From Dehalococcoidia bacterium (GTDB lineage Bacteria > Chloroflexota > Dehalococcoidia > UBA2979), in assembly GCA_963692775.1 (NCBI GenBank), contig OY839116.1, positions 1,990,544 through 2,054,543 on the forward strand: DNA of 64,000 bases, written 5' to 3'. Of this stretch, positions 55,690 through 63,932 are shown piece after piece. Position 1 is the stretch's first letter. The number at the start of each line of letters is the position of its first letter. The position numbers and the translations under genes were made by a program. The notes beneath the pieces are model-generated. The model saw only the letters and a program-made list of their open reading frames with translations. It searched no databases and was not told the DNA's origin.

Positions 55690-57564
55690 ATGGGTGAGGG
55701 GCGGGAGCAGCGGATGCCTGGCGGCGGCGCGAGCGGGATCTTCGGGCAGGCGCTTCGTGCGCGGCGCCTGCTGCTGCTTGCGGCGCTCGCGCAGGCGATC
55801 GTGCTCGGCGCCTGCAGCGCGCTGCCCGGCGGCGCGCCGCCGCCCGCCGCCCTGACGGCGACCGCAACGCCGACGGCGACTCCGGCGCCCGTCGCCGAGG
55901 AGGCGCCCCGCGCCACCCCGGAGCCGGCCGCCGCGCCCGCCCCGACACCGGCCGCCACGCCCGCCCCGCCGGCCGCCACGCCCACGCCCGAACCCGGCGA
56001 GCCGGTGGCGATCCTCGTCACCGATCCCGCCGAGCGCTCGCGCCTCGAGGCGGCGCTGCGCTCGGCGGCCGGCTTCGCCCCCGCGGATCGCGACGCGCCG
56101 CTGCGCTGGGCGATCGCCGATGCGCCGCTGCCCGGCTCGCGGCCGCTCGTGCTCGCGCGCTGGGCGGCGATCGCGGACCAGCGGCGCGACGTGCTGGACC
56201 TGAGCCGGGACGACGTGATCCGCATCCTCCGGGGCGAGCTGCGCGGCTGGTCCCGGCTCGACGGGACGCGGCAGCCGATCACCGTGTATCTCGGCGTCTC
56301 GCAGGCGCTGCCGATCGCGCGCGCCCTCGGTATCTCGTCCGCCGACCTGCACGCGCGGGTGCTGCCCGACGGGGAGGTGGTCGACCGCGTCGCCGGGACC
56401 CCGGGCGGCTTCGCGCTGATCCCGCCCGAGCAACTGCGTCTCGGGGTGCTCGCGCTCACCGTCGACGGGCACGACCCGTACCGCGACCCGGCGGGGGAGT
56501 CTCCGTTGCGCATGGTGCGCTGGATCCGGGCCCCGACCCCGGGGGACGTCGTCAGGCTGGCCGCGTCCGCCGGCCTCGAGGCCGCCGAGCCGTTCGACCC
56601 GGCGGGCATGCTGGTCGCCGGCGATCTGATCCCGGTGCGTTGCAGCAACTACGTGCTCGCCACGCTCGACGACTACGGCGCGATGTTCGACGGCGTGCGC
56701 GACGCGATCGAGGCGGCGGACGTCGCCGTCGTCCCGCTCGAGTCGGCGCTCACGGGGCTCTCCGAGCCGACGTCCTGCGTGGAGACGTTCCTGCTGCAGG
56801 GCAGCCCTCGCTCGATCGATGCGGCGGCCGACGCCGGGGTGGACGTGATGCTCACGATCGGCAACCACATGCTCGACTGCTGGGAGGACTGCTCCGGCGC
56901 CGGTGCGCTGCTCGACACGCTGGCGCGGCTGGAGGAGGCCGGCATCGCCGCGGCCGGGGCCGGCGAGAATCTCGGCGACGCCCGCACGCCGGCGGTGTTC
57001 AGGGTCCACACGGAGCAGGGCTTCGTGCGCTTCGCCTTCCTCGGCTACGACGGGATCGCGCCCTGGTACGCGGCCAACCAGCACTCCCCGGGCGTCGCCC
57101 CGATCGAGGCGGAGAGCGTGCGCGAGGACGTGCGCGCGGCGCTCGCGATCGCGGACCATGTCGTGGTCGGGTTCAGCTGGGGCGTCGAGTACACGAGCGA
57201 TCCGACGGAGTTCCAGCGCGAGCTCGGCGCGATCGCGATCGAGTCCGGCGCGACGCTCGTGATCGGCAGCCATCCGCACTGGGTGCAGGCGGTCGAACAC
57301 TTCGATGACGCGCTCGTGACGTACTCGTTCGGCAACTTCATCTTCGATCAGGACTGGTCGGTGGAGACAACGCAGGGGATGATCATGGAGCTGGGATTCG
57401 CACTCGACCGGCTGATCGGGTACCGCATCCGGCCGATCGTGATCCGCGGCGACGGCGGCGAGCCGCACTGGATCTACCGCCCGGAGTTCGTCGACCCCGC
57501 CGGCGAGGGCCGCCCCATCCTCGAGCGCATCTGGCAGGCCCAGGACCGGCTCCCCGCGCGATAG
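55690..57564 (+). CDS. CapA-family protein (poly-gamma-glutamate capsule synthesis / metallophosphatase-like), lipoprotein
   Basis: Lipobox VLGACSALPG, Ala/Pro/Thr linker, CapA motifs TIGNH, GSHPHWVQ and SFGNFIFDQ. Confidence 0.75.
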   Translation: MGEGREQRMPGGGASGIFGQALRARRLLLLAALAQAIVLGACSALPGGAPPPAALTATATPTATPAPVAEEAPRATPEPAAAPAPTPAATPAPPAATPTPEPGEPVAILVTDPAERSRLEAALRSAAGFAPADRDAPLRWAIADAPLPGSRPLVLARWAAIADQRRDVLDLSRDDVIRILRGELRGWSRLDGTRQPITVYLGVSQALPIARALGISSADLHARVLPDGEVVDRVAGTPGGFALIPPEQLRLGVLALTVDGHDPYRDPAGESPLRMVRWIRAPTPGDVVRLAASAGLEAAEPFDPAGMLVAGDLIPVRCSNYVLATLDDYGAMFDGVRDAIEAADVAVVPLESALTGLSEPTSCVETFLLQGSPRSIDAAADAGVDVMLTIGNHMLDCWEDCSGAGALLDTLARLEEAGIAAAGAGENLGDARTPAVFRVHTEQGFVRFAFLGYDGIAPWYAANQHSPGVAPIEAESVREDVRAALAIADHVVVGFSWGVEYTSDPTEFQRELGAIAIESGATLVIGSHPHWVQAVEHFDDALVTYSFGNFIFDQDWSVETTQGMIMELGFALDRLIGYRIRPIVIRGDGGEPHWIYRPEFVDPAGEGRPILERIWQAQDRLPAR

Positions 57565-57685
57565 GGCCTGGTCGCATTCGTTGCGGGCTGGTCAGCGAAC
57601 GGATCAGGTGTCTGCGCACGCCAACTACGATTGTAAACCCCTCTCAAACCGCCTAGGCTGGCCGTCCCAGTAAGGGGGGTGGAAT

Positions 57686-58501
57686 GTGAAACGAGCAATC
57701 CTGTTGCTGGATGCTGAGTGCGGCCCGTGCTCGGGGTTCGGGAAGCAGATCGAGGCGGAGGGACTGACCGAGGGGACGATCCTCGAACTCGGCAGCCTGC
57801 ACGACCTGCGCTACCAGGACCACGTCACGAAGATGGAGCCCACGCTGGTCCGGTACGACGGCCCTGCGGTGGCTGTGTCCACCGGGGTGAGGCTGGCGAC
57901 CGCGCTGGTGAGGATCGTCGGGATGCGGCGTGCCTTCCGCATCGCGCAGCTCGTCCGCGAGGCGACCTCGGACGCCAAGTTCGACCCGTCGCGGCGCAGC
58001 TTCCTGCTTAGGGCTGCCGGTGCCGCAGCCGTCCTGCCGGTCGCGGGGGTGCTTGGCACGAAGGCGGCATCTGCCCAGACCGCTCCGAGCACCAGTTACG
58101 CGCTGACTGTGGCCGAGGCACTGGGGGCGTACAGGCTCCTGCTCGCTTCGGACGAGTTCAAGGCGGCCCACGCTACTGCTAAGAGTGACGGGCTGAGACA
58201 TCGCAGGGACACTAATCTGCAGACACGGCGAGGGCTCGATGGCTTTGCATCCAGTACTGCTGCCATTGGACTCGTCCGAGAACATAACGGGGAGCGACTA
58301 CTCGAACTCATCCTCTTCTACGAGGACGCCAAGGGCAACCGCGCCGAGATGCGCTTTATGTCTGCGTTGATAGACACCCGTGGCAACACCATTGTGGCGC
58401 TCGATGTCGATGGAAGTGGTGATGAGCAGGAGCAGGACACGCCAGGCGGGCGATTCCCAACGATACCTGGGGAATCACAAAGGACTCAGGCGCTTCCGTA
58501 G
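57686..58501 (+). CDS. DCC-family thiol-disulfide oxidoreductase domain (DUF393) fused to, or overlapping, a second domain preceded by a Tat-signal-like segment
   Basis: MKRAILLLDAECGPCSGFG (D-x-E-C-G-P-C). Mid-protein MRRAFRIAQLVREATSDAKFDPSRRSFLLRAAGAAAVLPVAGVLGTKAASAQ. Confidence 0.55.
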   Translation: MKRAILLLDAECGPCSGFGKQIEAEGLTEGTILELGSLHDLRYQDHVTKMEPTLVRYDGPAVAVSTGVRLATALVRIVGMRRAFRIAQLVREATSDAKFDPSRRSFLLRAAGAAAVLPVAGVLGTKAASAQTAPSTSYALTVAEALGAYRLLLASDEFKAAHATAKSDGLRHRRDTNLQTRRGLDGFASSTAAIGLVREHNGERLLELILFYEDAKGNRAEMRFMSALIDTRGNTIVALDVDGSGDEQEQDTPGGRFPTIPGESQRTQALP

Positions 58502-58641
58502 CGTCCGGCCAAGACGCTCCGGCACTCGCCCCTACAATCCGGATCAAGGGGCAGGGCGTTGACGTTACGCACACCAACGGTGAGTGGTCGGGGTCACAGG
58601 TTCCGTCAGCCGTTGCTGATGGTGTCACCGCCCAAGGTGAG

Positions 58642-58782
58642 ATGATGTACTGCTGGTCAGTCAGGTCGCGGATATGCACCACCTGCGCCGTGGTCGCCCC
58701 GAACCCACTCGCTGGTCTAATCTGCGTCATCGCCTGCGTCTACATAACTTGGCGCTACTGCTACATAGTCACCGTCGATTGA
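58642..58782 (+). CDS. Candidate small Cys-rich hydrophobic peptide (46 aa, 7 Cys)
   Basis: Hand-translated: MMYCWSVRSRICTTCAVVAPNPLAGLICVIACVYITWRYCYIVTVD*; AAGGTGAG SD 5 nt upstream. Below the ORF-track cutoff. Confidence 0.3.
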   Translation: MMYCWSVRSRICTTCAVVAPNPLAGLICVIACVYITWRYCYIVTVD

Positions 58783-58791
58783 GTTGGACCG

Positions 58792-59004
58792 ATGAGACGC
58801 TGGCTGCAGGGGTTTCGCGGGCCACCGACACGGAAGGAACTCTTGGTCGGTGGCCTCGCCGGGCTTGTCATAGGCAGCCTCGGGTTCGTGCTCCCGACGC
58901 TGTCGATCGAGGTCACACTCATCAGCCTGGCAGTGGGCATCACCGTGGTTGTCTTCGTTCGGTGGCGCTGGGGTGAGACGATCGACAGGTGGTTCCGCGG
59001 CTGA
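58792..59004 (+). CDS. Small membrane protein (70 aa, two TM helices)
   Basis: LLVGGLAGLVIGSLGFVLPTL and LISLAVGITVVVFV hydrophobic stretches; stop overlaps the next start (TGATG). Confidence 0.4.
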   Translation: MRRWLQGFRGPPTRKELLVGGLAGLVIGSLGFVLPTLSIEVTLISLAVGITVVVFVRWRWGETIDRWFRG

Positions 59005-59399
59005 TGGACTGGCGCCAGTACCTGCTCCTGCTCGCCTCGTGCGGCGTGCTCATCGGCCTCGCGATGGGGCTGCACTACGGGCACATGCACCACGAGAGCG
59101 CCGAGGAGCCTGCCGCTGTCGAGGCCACGCCGGAGGCGCCGCCGTGGCCGCCGACGCTCAAGGCTCGGATGATCGAGAACTGCGCCAGCACGGAAGTGGA
59201 AGGTCTACCGCGCACCAGCCGGGAGCAGTGCACGTGCACCTTTGATTGGTATGAGAAGCACATGGCCCTCGGTGACTACCTGGAGTGGAGCAACACGATG
59301 GGCACGGGTGGAACGCTCGGTGACGAGGCCAACGAGCTGTTCCAGCGAGCGGCGTCGGAATGCTCGGAGATCATCGTTGTCACTCCCGAGGCCCGCTGA
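59004..59399 (+). CDS. Signal-anchored Cys-containing small protein (131 aa)
   Basis: MDWRQYLLLLASCGVLIGLAMGL anchor, then a soluble domain with five Cys (ENCAS, EQCTCTF, ASECSEI). Internal Met of ORF 58989..59399. Confidence 0.45.
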   Translation: MDWRQYLLLLASCGVLIGLAMGLHYGHMHHESAEEPAAVEATPEAPPWPPTLKARMIENCASTEVEGLPRTSREQCTCTFDWYEKHMALGDYLEWSNTMGTGGTLGDEANELFQRAASECSEIIVVTPEAR

Positions 59400-59423
59400 C
59401 ACGCTGGCCGGCCGGAGCCCGGT

Positions 59424-60038
59424 TCAACTCCGCGCGAATGCCAGCAGCTGCGACGTGTCGCCCCCGTCAGCCTGTTGGATTGCGTGCAGGTAGGCGGACC
59501 GCAGTTCCCCGGTCGTGGCGTCGAGGTTCGCTCCCCAGCTGAAGTGGTCCCGTCCGAGGCCCTCAATCAGGTAGTTGGCGGCAACCCTGCCGTGACGACC
59601 GTTCCCGTTCGGAAACGGATGAATCGCGACGAGACGGTGGTGGAATCGCACCGCGAGGTCGTCGGGAGGGAACGACTCGTGCTCGACCCACGCCCGGGCG
59701 TCGTCGACGAGGAGACGGACGGCCGTCGCGATCCGGCGGGGGTCGATCCCGATGTTCGTCTGCGTTGTCCGATACTGGCCGGCCCAGGCCCACACCTCAC
59801 CGAACATCGCCCTGTGCAGGTCGCGGAGGTACTTGTCGTCGAGCAGTTGTGAGGGGTTCGGCGCACGACGGCGGAGGAGTGCGGCCGAGACATTGCGTTG
59901 CTCCGCATCGAACAGATCGCCCCGGGTGGCGATGTAGGAGGGGATGAGTCCTTGCCGGTCATCCTCGGAGAGCTCCGTGTGGCCATCGCCGACCGGGACC
60001 AGCGGATCGATCATCGCGGCGGTTTGGACTCCGCCCAC
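59424..60038 (-). CDS. Fic-family protein (mobile mystery protein B type)
   Basis: Fic motif HPFPNGNGRHGR; DKYLRDLHRAMFGEVWAWAGQYR. Confidence 0.8.
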   Translation of the reverse strand: MGGVQTAAMIDPLVPVGDGHTELSEDDRQGLIPSYIATRGDLFDAEQRNVSAALLRRRAPNPSQLLDDKYLRDLHRAMFGEVWAWAGQYRTTQTNIGIDPRRIATAVRLLVDDARAWVEHESFPPDDLAVRFHHRLVAIHPFPNGNGRHGRVAANYLIEGLGRDHFSWGANLDATTGELRSAYLHAIQQADGGDTSQLLAFARS

Positions 60039-60481
60039 AGCCCTCGGCGGTCGACCAACTCCGTCGCCAGGTCTTCGAGTTGGGCGGCGGCATCGGCGCC
60101 CGTGACGGCCTGATCCTCAAGCCTGCTGTGGTGCGCGACGCGCTCGAGGTGCTCGGACGCCTTGGCGCGCGCTTGCGCGGCAACGAGCTCGTCGAGGCTG
60201 CGGCGGGGAAGCAGAAAGTAGACCAGATCGCACTCGAGCGCGGCGGCGGCGCGCTCGAGCGTCTCAAGCCTGATTGCGCCTCGCTGCTCGCTACGCTCGA
60301 GGCCGGCGATGGTCTGCTGCGTCACGCCCATGCGTTCGGCCAGCTCTCTGCTCGACATTCCAAGTGCGTCCCGGACTGCCCGGATCCAGCCCCGGTGCGG
60401 GCGCGGCGCTCCGCCCAGCGAGCGAAGCCCGTCCAGGGTGCCATCCAGCCGCGACCTTGCGAGTTCCCGTGGAGAAGCCAT
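60011..60481 (-). CDS. HTH XRE-family protein (mobile mystery protein A type), partner of the Fic gene
   Basis: MSSRELAERMGVTQQTIAGLERSE HTH; overlaps the Fic start by 28 nt. Confidence 0.7.
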   Translation of the reverse strand: MASPRELARSRLDGTLDGLRSLGGAPRPHRGWIRAVRDALGMSSRELAERMGVTQQTIAGLERSEQRGAIRLETLERAAAALECDLVYFLLPRRSLDELVAAQARAKASEHLERVAHHSRLEDQAVTGADAAAQLEDLATELVDRRGLWAESKPPR

Positions 60482-60492
60482 GGGTTCATTAT

Positions 60493-60572
60493 ACAGGCCA
60501 TAGGCTGTATTTCAATATCGACTCAACAGTCTAGGACTTGTATATCAGGGTGGAACTTACAGGCTGTGGCCT
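60493..60572. promoter_or_regulatory. Two operator-like palindromes ACAGGC-N4-GCCTGT / ACAGGC-N4-GGCTGT upstream of the HTH gene
   Basis: tACAGGCcataGGCTGTa and ttACAGGCtgtgGCCTGTc in an AT-rich leader. Confidence 0.35.
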
Positions 60573-60580
60573 GTCGCCCC

Positions 60581-61921
60581 CTACAACGGCTTCGGCGCGT
60601 AGTCGCGGTCGATGCGCAGCACGGAGCCCATCTCCTCGTAGTCCTCGAACGGGAGCTGCGAGCCCTCGCGCGCGATGGGGTCCGATTGCAGGCCGGAGGC
60701 GCGGTCGGCGATGCGCCGCGCGTGCAGATCCTCGATCTCGACCGCGCTCAGGCCCAGCTCCGCCAGCACCGCGTCCGTGTCCGCGCCGAGGTGCGGCGCC
60801 GGTCCCTTCGCGGGCACGGCCGCGCCGTCGAACTTCGCCGGCAGGTAGCGCTGGATCGGCACCCGCCCGAAGTCGCCGATCGCGAGGTCGTCGAAGAACT
60901 CGCGCGCGGCCAGCTGGGGGTCGGCGATCACCTCGTCGGCCTTGAGAATCGGCCCCGCGGGCGCGCCCGCGCCTTGCAGCAGCGCGGCGACCTCGAACTT
61001 GTCGCGCTCGCGCGTCCAGGCCGCGATCGACTCGTCGAGGGCGTCGTGGTGCTCGGTGCGCGATGCGGCGTCGGCGAAGCGCGGGTCGTCGAGCCAGGCC
61101 TCGTGGCCGCTCGCGCGGCAGAAGGCCCGCCACTCCGCCTCGTCGCGCAGCGAGATCGCCACCCAGTCGTCGTCGCCCGCGCAGGGGTAGGCGCCGCGCA
61201 CCATGCCCGGCCGGCGGTTGCCGTCGCGCGCCTGGTGGCGGCCGTTGCGCTGGTAGTCGGCGAACTGCGACTCGAGGACCGGCAGCGTCGCCTCCTGCAT
61301 CGAGACATCGATGATCTGGCCCTCGCCCGTGCGGTCGCGGTGGATCAGCGCGGCGACGAGGGCGGCCGTGCCGTGCAGCCCGGAGTAGGGGTCGACCCAG
61401 GTCTGGCCGGTCTTGGTCGGGCCCTCGCCGCGGTAGCCGGTCACCGTCGGCACGCCCGAGGCGGGCTCCATCGTCATGCCGTTGGCCGGGCGGAAGGCGT
61501 TGGGGCCGGTCTGCCCGAAGCCGCTCAGGTGGAGCAGGATCAGCTGCGGGAACTCCTCGTGCAGCCCCTGGAAGTCGAAGCCGAGCCGGGCGACGACGCC
61601 GGGCATGAAGTTCTCGACCACCACGTCGGCCTCGGAGATCAGCCGCCGCACCAAGGCGCGGCCCTCCGCCTGCCCGAGGTCGATCATCGCCGAGCGCGTG
61701 CCGGCGTTGCGGACGGTGAAGTAGATGTTGCGGTTCCAGACCTCGCCCGCGATGTCGTTGCGAGGCGGGAAGAGCGTGCGGTTGCCGTAGTTGCCGCCCG
61801 GCGTGAACGCCCGCTCGACGCGCACCATGTTCGCCCCGAGATCGGAGAGGATGCGCGTCGCCAGCGGCCCGACCCAGCCCTGAGTCAGCGCGACGACCTT
61901 GAGGTCCTCGAAGAAGCGCAT
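60581..61921 (-). CDS. Family III CoA-transferase (CaiB/BaiF)
   Basis: LKVVALTQGWVGPLATRILSDLGANMVRVER. Confidence 0.85.
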   Translation of the reverse strand: MRFFEDLKVVALTQGWVGPLATRILSDLGANMVRVERAFTPGGNYGNRTLFPPRNDIAGEVWNRNIYFTVRNAGTRSAMIDLGQAEGRALVRRLISEADVVVENFMPGVVARLGFDFQGLHEEFPQLILLHLSGFGQTGPNAFRPANGMTMEPASGVPTVTGYRGEGPTKTGQTWVDPYSGLHGTAALVAALIHRDRTGEGQIIDVSMQEATLPVLESQFADYQRNGRHQARDGNRRPGMVRGAYPCAGDDDWVAISLRDEAEWRAFCRASGHEAWLDDPRFADAASRTEHHDALDESIAAWTRERDKFEVAALLQGAGAPAGPILKADEVIADPQLAAREFFDDLAIGDFGRVPIQRYLPAKFDGAAVPAKGPAPHLGADTDAVLAELGLSAVEIEDLHARRIADRASGLQSDPIAREGSQLPFEDYEEMGSVLRIDRDYAPKPL

Positions 61922-63279: not shown

Positions 63280-63468
63280 ATGAACGCGCGGGAGTTTCGT
63301 CGCTGGCTGAGCCGGCGCGGCTGCACGTTCCACACGCACAAGGGCGGCAGCGGGCACGTCACCGTGCGGCGCGGAAACCGAACCAGTCAGCTGCCGATGC
63401 ACGGCGGCCGCAAGGAGTTGGGACGAGGGCTCGTCGCCAAGATCAAGAAGGATCTGGGGTTGAACTGA
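63280..63468 (+). CDS. hicA: HicA-family toxin
   Basis: MNAREFRRWLSRRGCTFHTHKGGSGHVTVRRGNRTSQLPMHGGRKELGRGLVAKIKKDLGLN. Confidence 0.65.
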   Translation: MNAREFRRWLSRRGCTFHTHKGGSGHVTVRRGNRTSQLPMHGGRKELGRGLVAKIKKDLGLN

Positions 63469-63932
63469 TGCTCGCCTACCCGATCGTACTTGAGGACGAC
63501 GATGGCGCCGTACTGGCGACATCGCCCGACTTCCCTGAGCTGTCGACATTCGGTGACGACCGCGAAGAGGCCCTTGCCCGCGCCGTCGATGCCCTCGAGG
63601 AAGCGATCGCCGCGCGTATCCACGACCGCCGGGATATTCCCGAACCCTCCCGAGGCGAGATCGACGCCGTGCTGCCGACCCTCACCTCGGTCAAGGTGAT
63701 GCTCTACCAGGGAATGCGAGATCAGGGGATTGGGAAGGCGGAACTTGCCCGTCGTCTGGGCTGGCACATGCCGCAAGTCGACCGCGTGCTCGACGTGAAC
63801 CACCACTCGCGATTGGACCAGATGGACGCCGCCCTCGGAGCGATCGGGAAGCGCTTGCAGGTGATTGCCGCACCCGTGTCGGAACCGGCGCTCAGCGGAG
63901 GGGCAGGCGGCGGATCAGGCACGCCAGGATAG
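63468..63932 (+). CDS. hicB: HicB-family antitoxin with C-terminal HTH (paralog of 39556..40041)
   Basis: MLAYPIVLEDDDGAVLATSPDFPELSTFGDDREEALARAVDAL; GIGKAELARRLGWHMPQVDRVL HTH; ATG overlaps the hicA stop (TGATG). Confidence 0.7.
   Translation: MLAYPIVLEDDDGAVLATSPDFPELSTFGDDREEALARAVDALEEAIAARIHDRRDIPEPSRGEIDAVLPTLTSVKVMLYQGMRDQGIGKAELARRLGWHMPQVDRVLDVNHHSRLDQMDAALGAIGKRLQVIAAPVSEPALSGGAGGGSGTPG

Follow-up and report, generated by a model that had tools for sequence, protein, structure and literature searches.

The closest described counterpart of the system analyzed here is halocin C8 of Natrinema. It has been reported that halocin C8 arises by cleavage from the C-terminal end of ProC8, a precursor of 283 aa which is exported by the twin-arginine translocation (Tat) pathway, that the N-terminal part of ProC8 is the immunity protein, and that bacterial homologues of halocin C8 number only 26, in Bacillota, Nitrolancea and WOR-3 (bioRxiv 10.64898/2026.07.27.741052). 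Here, we analyzed a 64-kb stretch of the genome of a Dehalococcoidia bacterium (contig OY839116.1, positions 1,990,544 to 2,054,543; hereafter the window, in whose numbering all positions are given), in which the segment between a CapA gene and a CoA-transferase gene contains a gene for a precursor protein with a Cys-rich tail, followed by genes for two small proteins, p70 and p136. We consider it slightly more probable than a coin toss that these genes form a Tat-exported, halocin-C8-like bacteriocin/immunity cassette, for which we infer export, cleavage, killing and immunity. Comparison loci are referred to below by L numbers and homologous proteins by P numbers.

ProC8 is represented by the models TIGR04449 (halocin_C8_dom), NF040679 and TIGR04450 (Gpos_C8_like, 'immunity/bacteriocin fusion'), and the precursor of the window resembles it in being a Tat-bearing protein in the range of ~280-380 aa. 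The last 50-76 residues of ProC8 are set free from its C-terminus as a hydrophobic, Cys-rich peptide, and by analogy the tail of the precursor may be released as well; moreover, production and immunity are encoded together in ProC8, as they would be in a cassette with candidate immunity genes. On the other hand, the Tat signal of the precursor is internal and is preceded by a domain of ~95 aa with a thioredoxin (Trx) fold and a DxxCxxC motif, its candidate immunity function resides in separate downstream genes, with the HalI domain (PF22862) not being detected, and the hosts are Chloroflexota and Actinomycetota, outside the 26 bacterial C8 homologues. The HalC8 peptide contains 10 Cys, whereas the tail of the precursor contains six, arranged as a C-x7-C-x2/3-C..C-x3-C-x7-C hairpin. 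By analogy, the architecture of the precursor may work like that of ProC8, and yet, of the features that define the halocin C8 family, the protein has the Tat signal but neither a qualifying score nor the N-terminal HalI domain.

Gene structure of the precursor

The sequence-only reading that preceded this work described four co-directional genes, including one for a 271-aa oxidoreductase (p271) and a separate one for a 46-aa Cys-rich peptide (p46, 58642-58782). Our analysis instead gives three co-directional genes, one of them frameshifted: judged by its homologues, p271 plus p46 is one gene encoding ~365 aa (57686-58782) that carries a -1 frameshift. Firstly, the p46 frame is open for 216 nt 5' of its ATG, from 58426, and this extension encodes the conserved motif TIRIKGQGVDVTHTNGEWSG. 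Secondly, p271 has only eight relatives in a collection of 5.8 billion proteins, of which the intact ones comprise 350-467 aa and end in a hydrophobic Cys-rich tail resembling p46. The intact homologues overall, with sizes of 350-585 aa, cover p271 and p46 colinearly; in their alignment (A1) p271 and the second frame are placed colinearly on the homologues, and no conserved Met is present at the p46 start. Thirdly, tblastn searches with P0003 and P0009 matched both pieces, with residues 381-467 of the former and 490-578 of the latter mapping to 58501-58779 (E ~2e-10 to 4e-10). All 72 junctions tested within the 58426-58499 overlap of the two frames produced a stop-free product of 365 aa, and one such joined product could be aligned with P0002 from end to end (47% identity, E 6e-95). 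A candidate site for the frameshift is the GGGG run within the CCTGGGGAA stretch.

It could be argued that this genome has two functional genes here, one for the 271-aa oxidoreductase and another for a 46-aa peptide translated on its own, since both open reading frames (ORFs) have a start codon, AAGGTG is present just 5' of the ATG at 58642, and no further pair of obviously split ORFs was noticed among the ~55 genes of the window. However, besides the open, motif-encoding frame upstream of the ATG and the lack of a Met at this position in the homologues, the Shine-Dalgarno-like bases simply encode Q-G-E and their spacing of 2 nt is too short, and a 271-aa product would stop inside the pro-domain, before the conserved motif and the tail. 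We therefore regard separate genes as highly improbable, and an independent p46 gene was rejected on the basis of frame continuity and the homologue alignment.

A programmed frameshift was also rejected, because the majority of the close homologues have a single reading frame, and those that are disrupted are broken elsewhere or by an insertion sequence (IS): L003 has a different shift near its 5' end, L004 is split at another place, and L093 is cut by an IS element. As these three are broken at different sites, the disruption is not a conserved feature. The precursor of the window is either a fresh pseudogene or mis-assembled; a second copy of the family was not found in the window by tblastn. 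Indel errors are known in comparable long-read metagenome-assembled genomes (MAGs), where the CoA-transferase gene is split in L090 and intact in L089 and L091; an argument in the other direction is that the window itself showed no second split ORF pair. Frameshift-split genes in the comparison MAGs were p70 in L086 (4788-4998), CoA-transferase genes in L090 (5420-7297) and the 5' end of the precursor gene in L003 (7850-8060); their occurrence in several long-read MAGs makes indel errors plausible in such data.

Architecture of the precursor and its superfamily

All intact homologues have the same layout, consisting of an N-terminal DxxCxxC thioredoxin fold, an internal Tat signal, a pro-domain and a hydrophobic tail with six Cys. 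The joined 365-aa protein of the window has eight Cys in all, two in the N-terminal CxxC and six in the tail. Its DxxCxxC motif is DAECGPC (residues 9-15), and its Tat signal, which is internal and not N-terminal, comprises SRRSFL, an h-region and AxA (residues 102-131), the AxA reading as a signal-peptidase site after the h-region. In an alignment of 96 members, D31, C34, C37, P74 and R126 are conserved in at least 90% and R125 is invariant; R125 and R126 are the twin arginines of the Tat signal, and the position of P74 is consistent with the cis-proline of thioredoxins. Tat-signal models match 25 of the 96 members at residues ~100-140, and P0033 was the one scanned member above the TIGR01409 cut-off. 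The fold was read from an AF2 model of the homologue P0002, not of the window protein, which has a predicted local distance difference test (pLDDT) score of 79.8 overall and of 90-96 in the N-domain; when this model was used in Foldseek, nearly all of the top 50 PDB matches were thioredoxins or Trx-fold domains, most of them at a probability of 0.9-0.99.

The sequence-only reading had assigned p271 to the DCC family of oxidoreductases. DCC1-like proteins (PF04134, formerly DUF393) are characterized by an N-terminal beta-strand followed by D-x-x-C-x-x-C on a thioredoxin-like fold, and the precursor has this N-terminal motif, on such a fold according to the P0002 model. Nevertheless, the window protein gave no PF04134 match at E<=0.1 or even at E<=10. 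Weak matches at E<=1, to profile positions 1-85, were obtained for 25 of the 96 members (best E 1.1e-4), with scores in relatives of at most 18 bits in the tables listing scores, and every score shown was below the gathering threshold of 27.8 bits. In addition, DCC1-like proteins are small and stand-alone, whereas the domain of the precursor is the head of a fusion that continues with a Tat signal, a pro-domain and a Cys-rich tail. The DCC assignment was therefore abandoned in favour of a remote resemblance only. The search of all four original ORFs against Pfam (including DUF393) and NCBIfam models likewise gave no DCC domain for p271 and no family for p46, p70 or p136. A literature search for DCC or DUF393 in connection with bacteriocins returned nothing relevant, no description of a Trx-like head ahead of a Tat signal was found in the literature searched, and the precursor family with its thioredoxin-like head is previously undescribed.

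The family is part of a larger one. A profile of the close family, searched against 1.84 billion representative proteins, matched 363 clusters (representatives at 50% identity) at E<=1e-3; the count falls to 63 at E<=1e-10 and to 18 at E<=1e-30. The more distant members, with sizes of 300-400 aa, have the first ~130 positions in common. When the 94 members with the N-terminal motif and a size of at least 280 aa were considered, 86 had at least four Cys among their 70 C-terminal residues (median 10, maximum 16), against a median of three elsewhere in the protein. The tails fall into several recurrent, unrelated-looking classes, with hydrophobic hairpins at one extreme and soluble peptides very dense in Cys at the other. 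Taxonomically labelled members come from Dehalococcoidia MAGs and one actinomycete, and a scan of metagenome contigs with the precursor family gave no match. Separately, we observed that a 50-residue piece of the pro-domain matches P0025 (1798 aa, 50 Cys) in 12 separate stretches, so that P0025 seems to consist of repeats of this unit.

Partner genes and the function of the cassette

In all ten close cassettes (window, L001, L002a, L002b, L003, L004, L005, L093, L094 and L095) a small membrane ORF lies directly 3' of the precursor gene, a few bases past its stop codon or past an inserted IS. The partners fall into at least two classes. Those of one class end in RWRWGE..WFR(G/S) and are followed by a p136-type gene (window and L093, with L003 being similar), and those of another end in ..VWGWRD or ALWGTRD and lack p136 (L001, L002b and L094). 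For nine cassettes, the similarity of the partners correlates with that of the tails (Mantel r 0.64, p 0.003) and not with that of the conserved core (r 0.12, p 0.28). Such co-variation would be expected if a toxin tail and its immunity gene were exchanged as a unit. The start-stop coupling of p70 and p136 noted in the earlier reading is present (TGATG at 59002-59006), and p136, for which only 10 homologues were found, has four conserved Cys in its ectodomain; in L003, L093 and L089-L091, too, it is coupled to a p70 homologue, and in L086 it is located beside a frameshifted p70.

Two further observations concern these genes. In L087 (5001-5624) the p136 homologue has 207 aa and its four-Cys ectodomain is doubled in tandem. 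L002 (4079-9778) contains two paralogous precursor-partner cassettes in tandem behind a 271-aa secreted protein of no known family, surrounded by transposase genes of the IS21, IS110 and IS256 types and a serine recombinase gene.

The halocin models provide a second type of comparison. In scans of whole proteins, matches below the cut-offs, as far as scores are shown, were obtained among superfamily members for TIGR04450 (in six), NF040679 (in three) and TIGR04449 (in two), the best having an E-value of 1.7e-4; the cut-offs of these models are 27, 200 and 24 bits, respectively. When isolated tails were scanned, seven of ten near relatives aligned to the same C-terminal region of the profile (best E 0.0012), the best scores being 18.5 bits (TIGR04450) and 15.8 bits (TIGR04449).

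Based on the hypervariable Cys-rich tails, the tail-matched membrane partners, the existence of partners without a precursor gene (see below) and the sub-threshold halocin C8 matches, we favour the bacteriocin/immunity reading. The precursor would consist of a presumably cytoplasmic Trx-fold DxxCxxC head, an internal Tat signal with its AxA cleavage site, a cystatin-like pro-domain, the LR(L/I)KGxGVD..NGxWSG motif and a hydrophobic six-Cys helical hairpin. The Trx-like head may set the redox state of the tail ahead of export, and would remain inside when the C-terminal part leaves via the Tat pathway. The tail would then be freed and disulfide-stapled outside the cell, in parallel to halocin C8 being cut from the C-terminus of its Tat-exported precursor, and may act on the membrane or envelope of competitors, with p70 and p136 shielding the producer. 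Relatives possessing only p70-p136, or another class of partner, would be immune non-producers, and the window genome would be that of a producer whose toxin gene has only just been lost, or appears to have been. The earlier suggestion of a bacteriocin-like, thiol-dependent peptide system is thus favoured by the comparative evidence, while the architecture then proposed for it, an oxidoreductase beside a separate peptide, does not stand.

Several points weigh against this reading. The tail of the window protein gave no match to the halocin models at E<=10, the matches of its relatives are all below the cut-offs, and a Cys-rich hydrophobic composition could inflate such matches. The HalI domain was detected neither in the window protein nor among the best 25 of the 39 families listed. 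The Mantel correlation is based on nine cassettes, is largely driven by one trio and includes no phylogenetic correction, and the distant member L092 (Paractinoplanes) lacks a small membrane partner. In the neighbourhoods examined, no protease or exporter gene is conserved near the cassettes. A folded domain ahead of a Tat signal is unusual, and export is a prediction here, as is the activity of every family member, which rests on comparison. Finally, the precursor is broken in the window, and the cassette may do nothing in this genome. Taken on their own, the structural statements (gene structure, family architecture, locus variability and tail-partner co-variation) are ones in which we have high confidence.

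The principal alternative is that the protein stays intact in the membrane as part of a thiol-redox relay of the DsbD/CcdA kind, or of an envelope-stress module, in which electrons would pass from the cytoplasmic Trx-like CxxC to the Cys of the C-terminal membrane hairpin and on to the extracytoplasmic p136. The Trx fold, the conserved CxxC, the proline where the thioredoxin cis-proline is expected, the six Cys in a hydrophobic hairpin and the four conserved ectodomain Cys of p136 would all fit such a route. We nevertheless consider it unlikely, because the tail Cys are hypervariable in number (4-16), spacing and hydrophobicity, with some tails being clearly soluble and knottin-like, because an AxA signal-peptidase site follows the Tat h-region, and because p70-p136 persists without the precursor; moreover, the precursor gene is rare, patchy, IS-associated and repeatedly disrupted. 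Somewhat less probable still is a secreted Cys-rich peptide for signalling or for kin or self recognition, with p70 and p136 as receptor or sensor. The same polymorphism and tail-partner co-variation would be expected in that case, and the partners are membrane proteins, but beside the cassettes there is no conserved gene for a kinase, a regulator or another transduction protein, partners without a ligand gene fit immunity better, and the weak similarity to halocin C8 points to a toxin. Lastly, a ribosomally made, post-translationally modified peptide (RiPP) whose Cys-rich core is matured by dedicated tailoring enzymes, a RiPP-like system being one possibility raised by the sequence-only reading, is very doubtful: a long 'leader' that ends in a Cys-rich core is reminiscent of RiPPs, but a dedicated modifying enzyme beside the precursor is lacking in what was examined, as genes for radical-SAM proteins, LanB/C/M, YcaO, peptidases or ABC exporters are absent from the window cassette and conserved in none of the 10 neighbourhoods, and the sole redox domain is the fused Trx-like head.

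The bacteriocin/immunity reading might be extended to the superfamily as a whole. The cassettes share with polymorphic toxin and bacteriocin-immunity cassettes a conserved N-terminal body, a hypervariable C-terminal module and a co-varying adjacent partner, as well as partner-only loci in relatives, IS association and a location in a hot spot. They differ in that the precursor has none of the RHS/YD, type VI secretion, type VII secretion or contact-dependent inhibition (CDI) delivery domains, with Tat as the route that delivery would take, and in that the 'toxin' would be a Cys-rich peptide of 45-70 residues and not an enzyme domain. We tentatively suggest, at less than even confidence, that the at least 363 clusters represent polymorphic Tat-exported Cys-rich toxins with a built-in Trx-like redox chaperone, co-exchanged with tail-matched immunity proteins; the cytoplasmic Trx-like domain would then be a redox chaperone or quality-control device for the Cys-rich warhead.

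The hot spot and what it may mean

The CapA and CoA-transferase genes, recognized as flanks by the sequence-only reading and confirmed by their Pfam matches (Table 1), belong to the core genome and are syntenic in relatives (63-76% and 86-96% identity, respectively). They bracket the same spot in these relatives, and its content differs. VapBC is present between them in L007 and L008, and a remnant of an antitoxin gene in L006. L009 and L010 contain only a four-helix partner of ~130 aa, of the WGWRD/WEWLD class. Coupled p70-p136 genes are found in L089-L091, where p70 is 63% identical and both the precursor and Fic genes are lacking, a frameshifted p70 plus p136 in L086, and a p70 remnant, a tandemly duplicated p136 and a helix-turn-helix (HTH)/Fic gene pair in L087 and L088. 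Among the relatives compared, the precursor is present at this site only in the window genome; the stretch specific to the window relative to L010 spans ~57667-60558. The precursor-p70-p136 cassette itself was found at three unrelated genomic sites (window, L003 and L093), and in all six loci checked the GC content of the cassette is below that of its flanks, several of these loci being IS-flanked.

These comparisons indicate that a recombination hot spot lies between the CapA and CoA-transferase genes, and that the segment represents one of its states. Relatives lack the segment at this locus or have different content there, but it is not a single inserted island, as the p70-p136 pair is common to relatives and the locus is hypervariable. 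An integrative genomic island was also rejected: no integrase ORF and no flanking direct repeat above chance were found, in agreement with the sequence-only reading, and the nearest tRNA gene is ~39 kb away. An Rfam scan of the segment gave no RNA family. The lower GC content on which that reading was based was reproduced on computation. The kilobase 58001-59000, with 0.62, is the lowest of the 64 in the window, which has 0.711 overall, and the GC content at third codon positions (GC3) is 0.75 for p271, the lowest value in the window, 0.77 for p46, 0.80 for p70, 0.85-0.86 for p136, 0.81 for the Fic gene and 0.80 for the HTH gene, compared to 0.94 as the median of 55 crude gene calls. Upstream of the precursor gene, the non-coding element of ~45 nt listed in Table 1 is kept in the window, L086, L087, L089, L009 and L010 though the downstream genes differ, and it is probably the promoter/operator region of whichever cassette fills the hot spot.

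Table 1. Positions of the features in the segment and of its flanking genes
Feature	Position	Strand	Evidence or remark
CapA/PGA_cap family gene (left flank)	55690-57564	+	Pfam PF09587, E 1.7e-48; GC3 0.95
Conserved non-coding element (CTACGATTGTAA..CTCTCAA..CTAGGCTG)	57619-57665	+	Invariant block, alignment A6
Precursor gene, 5' part (p271), 271 codons	57686-58501	+	GTG start behind AAGGGGGGTGG Shine-Dalgarno; homologues P0002-P0009
Thioredoxin-fold DxxCxxC domain	~57686-57970	+	AF2 model of homologue P0002 and Foldseek
Internal Tat signal SRRSFLLRAAGAAAVLPVAGVLGTKAASA	~57980-58075	+	Weak Tat-signal model matches, aa 96-136 of window protein
Helical/beta pro-domain	3' of Tat signal, within 57686-58501	+	
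Overlap of the two open frames	58426-58499	+	Three-frame translation; single-base (-1) frameshift must fall here
Precursor gene, 3' part, other frame	58426-58782	+	Alignment A1, tblastn
Conserved motif TIRIKGQGVDVTHTNGEWSG	58534-58593	+	Alignment A1
Cys6 hydrophobic helical-hairpin tail	58651-58779	+	C-x7-C-x2-C-x12-C-x3-C-x7-C
p70, 70-aa two-helix membrane protein ending RWRWGETIDRWFRG	58792-59004	+	Candidate immunity/partner protein
p136, 131 aa from ATG at 59004	59004-59399	+	N-terminal membrane anchor and extracytoplasmic domain; candidate second immunity/accessory protein
Fic-domain protein, mobile mystery protein B, 204 aa	59424-60038	-	TIGR02613, 213 bits (cut-off 124.4); Pfam Fic, E 7.8e-14
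HTH_3 protein, mobile mystery protein A	60011-60481	-	TIGR02612, 160 bits (cut-off 122.6)
Sigma-70-like promoter of HTH/Fic operon, TTGAAA-16-TATAAT, 11/12	60488-60515	-	Promoter scan
CoA-transferase family III gene (right flank)	60581-61921	-	Pfam PF02515, E 3e-98; GC3 0.98

The convergent mobile mystery A/B pair named in the sequence-only reading was recovered, resembling the described pairs in that both proteins score above the NCBIfam cut-offs, the genes form an overlapping operon (28 nt, same orientation) and the region is variable. The Fic/DOC (PF02661) motif HxFx(D/E)GNGRxxR is represented by HPFPNGNGRHGR, with N replacing D/E, and the Fic protein has FICD relatives in the PDB. In a PADLOC run only the HTH/Fic pair was matched, as candidate PDC-S04 (E 2.4e-18). 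An imperfect palindrome (TACAG..CTGTA, 60493-60509) covers the -10 box of the HTH/Fic promoter and may be its operator. A similar hairpin is located at 60558-60574, just downstream of the CoA-transferase stop codon, and is also kept in L010. The pair is present at this locus in L087 and L088 as well (93% and 79% identity), and it accompanies p136 only there and in the window. We found nothing new in the pair itself, and regard it as a neighbour, not as a conserved part of the cassette.

Some additional features were observed around the hot spot and elsewhere in the window. The CapA gene is tandemly duplicated in L006 (10001-13650), L007 (8098-11860) and L008 (8089-11860), each copy being 73-76% identical to the single CapA of the window. 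Toxin-antitoxin pairs are abundant nearby in relatives: the VapBC pair inside the hot spot is of the AbrB-like/PIN type (L007, 11957-12636; same region of L008), and HicA/HicB lies just past two CoA-transferase genes in L086 (8408-9060) and L090 (8228-8922). Six more small genes of the window, encoding 126-175 aa, have a GC3 of 0.76-0.84 (9027-9449, 10109-10633, 18893-19303, 33199-33669, 55091-55471 and 63387-63806) and may be other accessory or toxin-antitoxin-type genes. ARAGORN reported a 99-nt 'tRNA-???' with a four-base anticodon (cgcg) at 29181-29279, where Rfam gave no tRNA; it lies in a region of ~2.1 kb (28886-31023) without a high-GC3 ORF. A tRNA-Pro(cgg) reported by ARAGORN at 18722-18798 is absent from the Rfam scan at gathering thresholds and overlaps a crude ORF (17946-18782).

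With respect to annotation, our analysis implies that the deposited 271-aa protein and the downstream Cys-rich 46-aa ORF are fragments of one gene. If the bacteriocin/immunity reading is correct, the superfamily would constitute a large group of ribosomal antimicrobial peptides that have so far gone unannotated, from Actinomycetota and from the poorly cultured Chloroflexota, with an architecture that none of the 26 bacterial halocin C8 homologues in the recent census has. The fusion of a thioredoxin-like domain before an internal Tat signal would then be a new way in which a hydrophobic peptide that is toxic and rich in disulfides can be produced and exported. Likewise, the hot spot between the CapA and CoA-transferase genes, with its producer, immune-only and unrelated toxin-antitoxin states, would provide a natural series in which the gain and loss of toxin and immunity genes can be followed.

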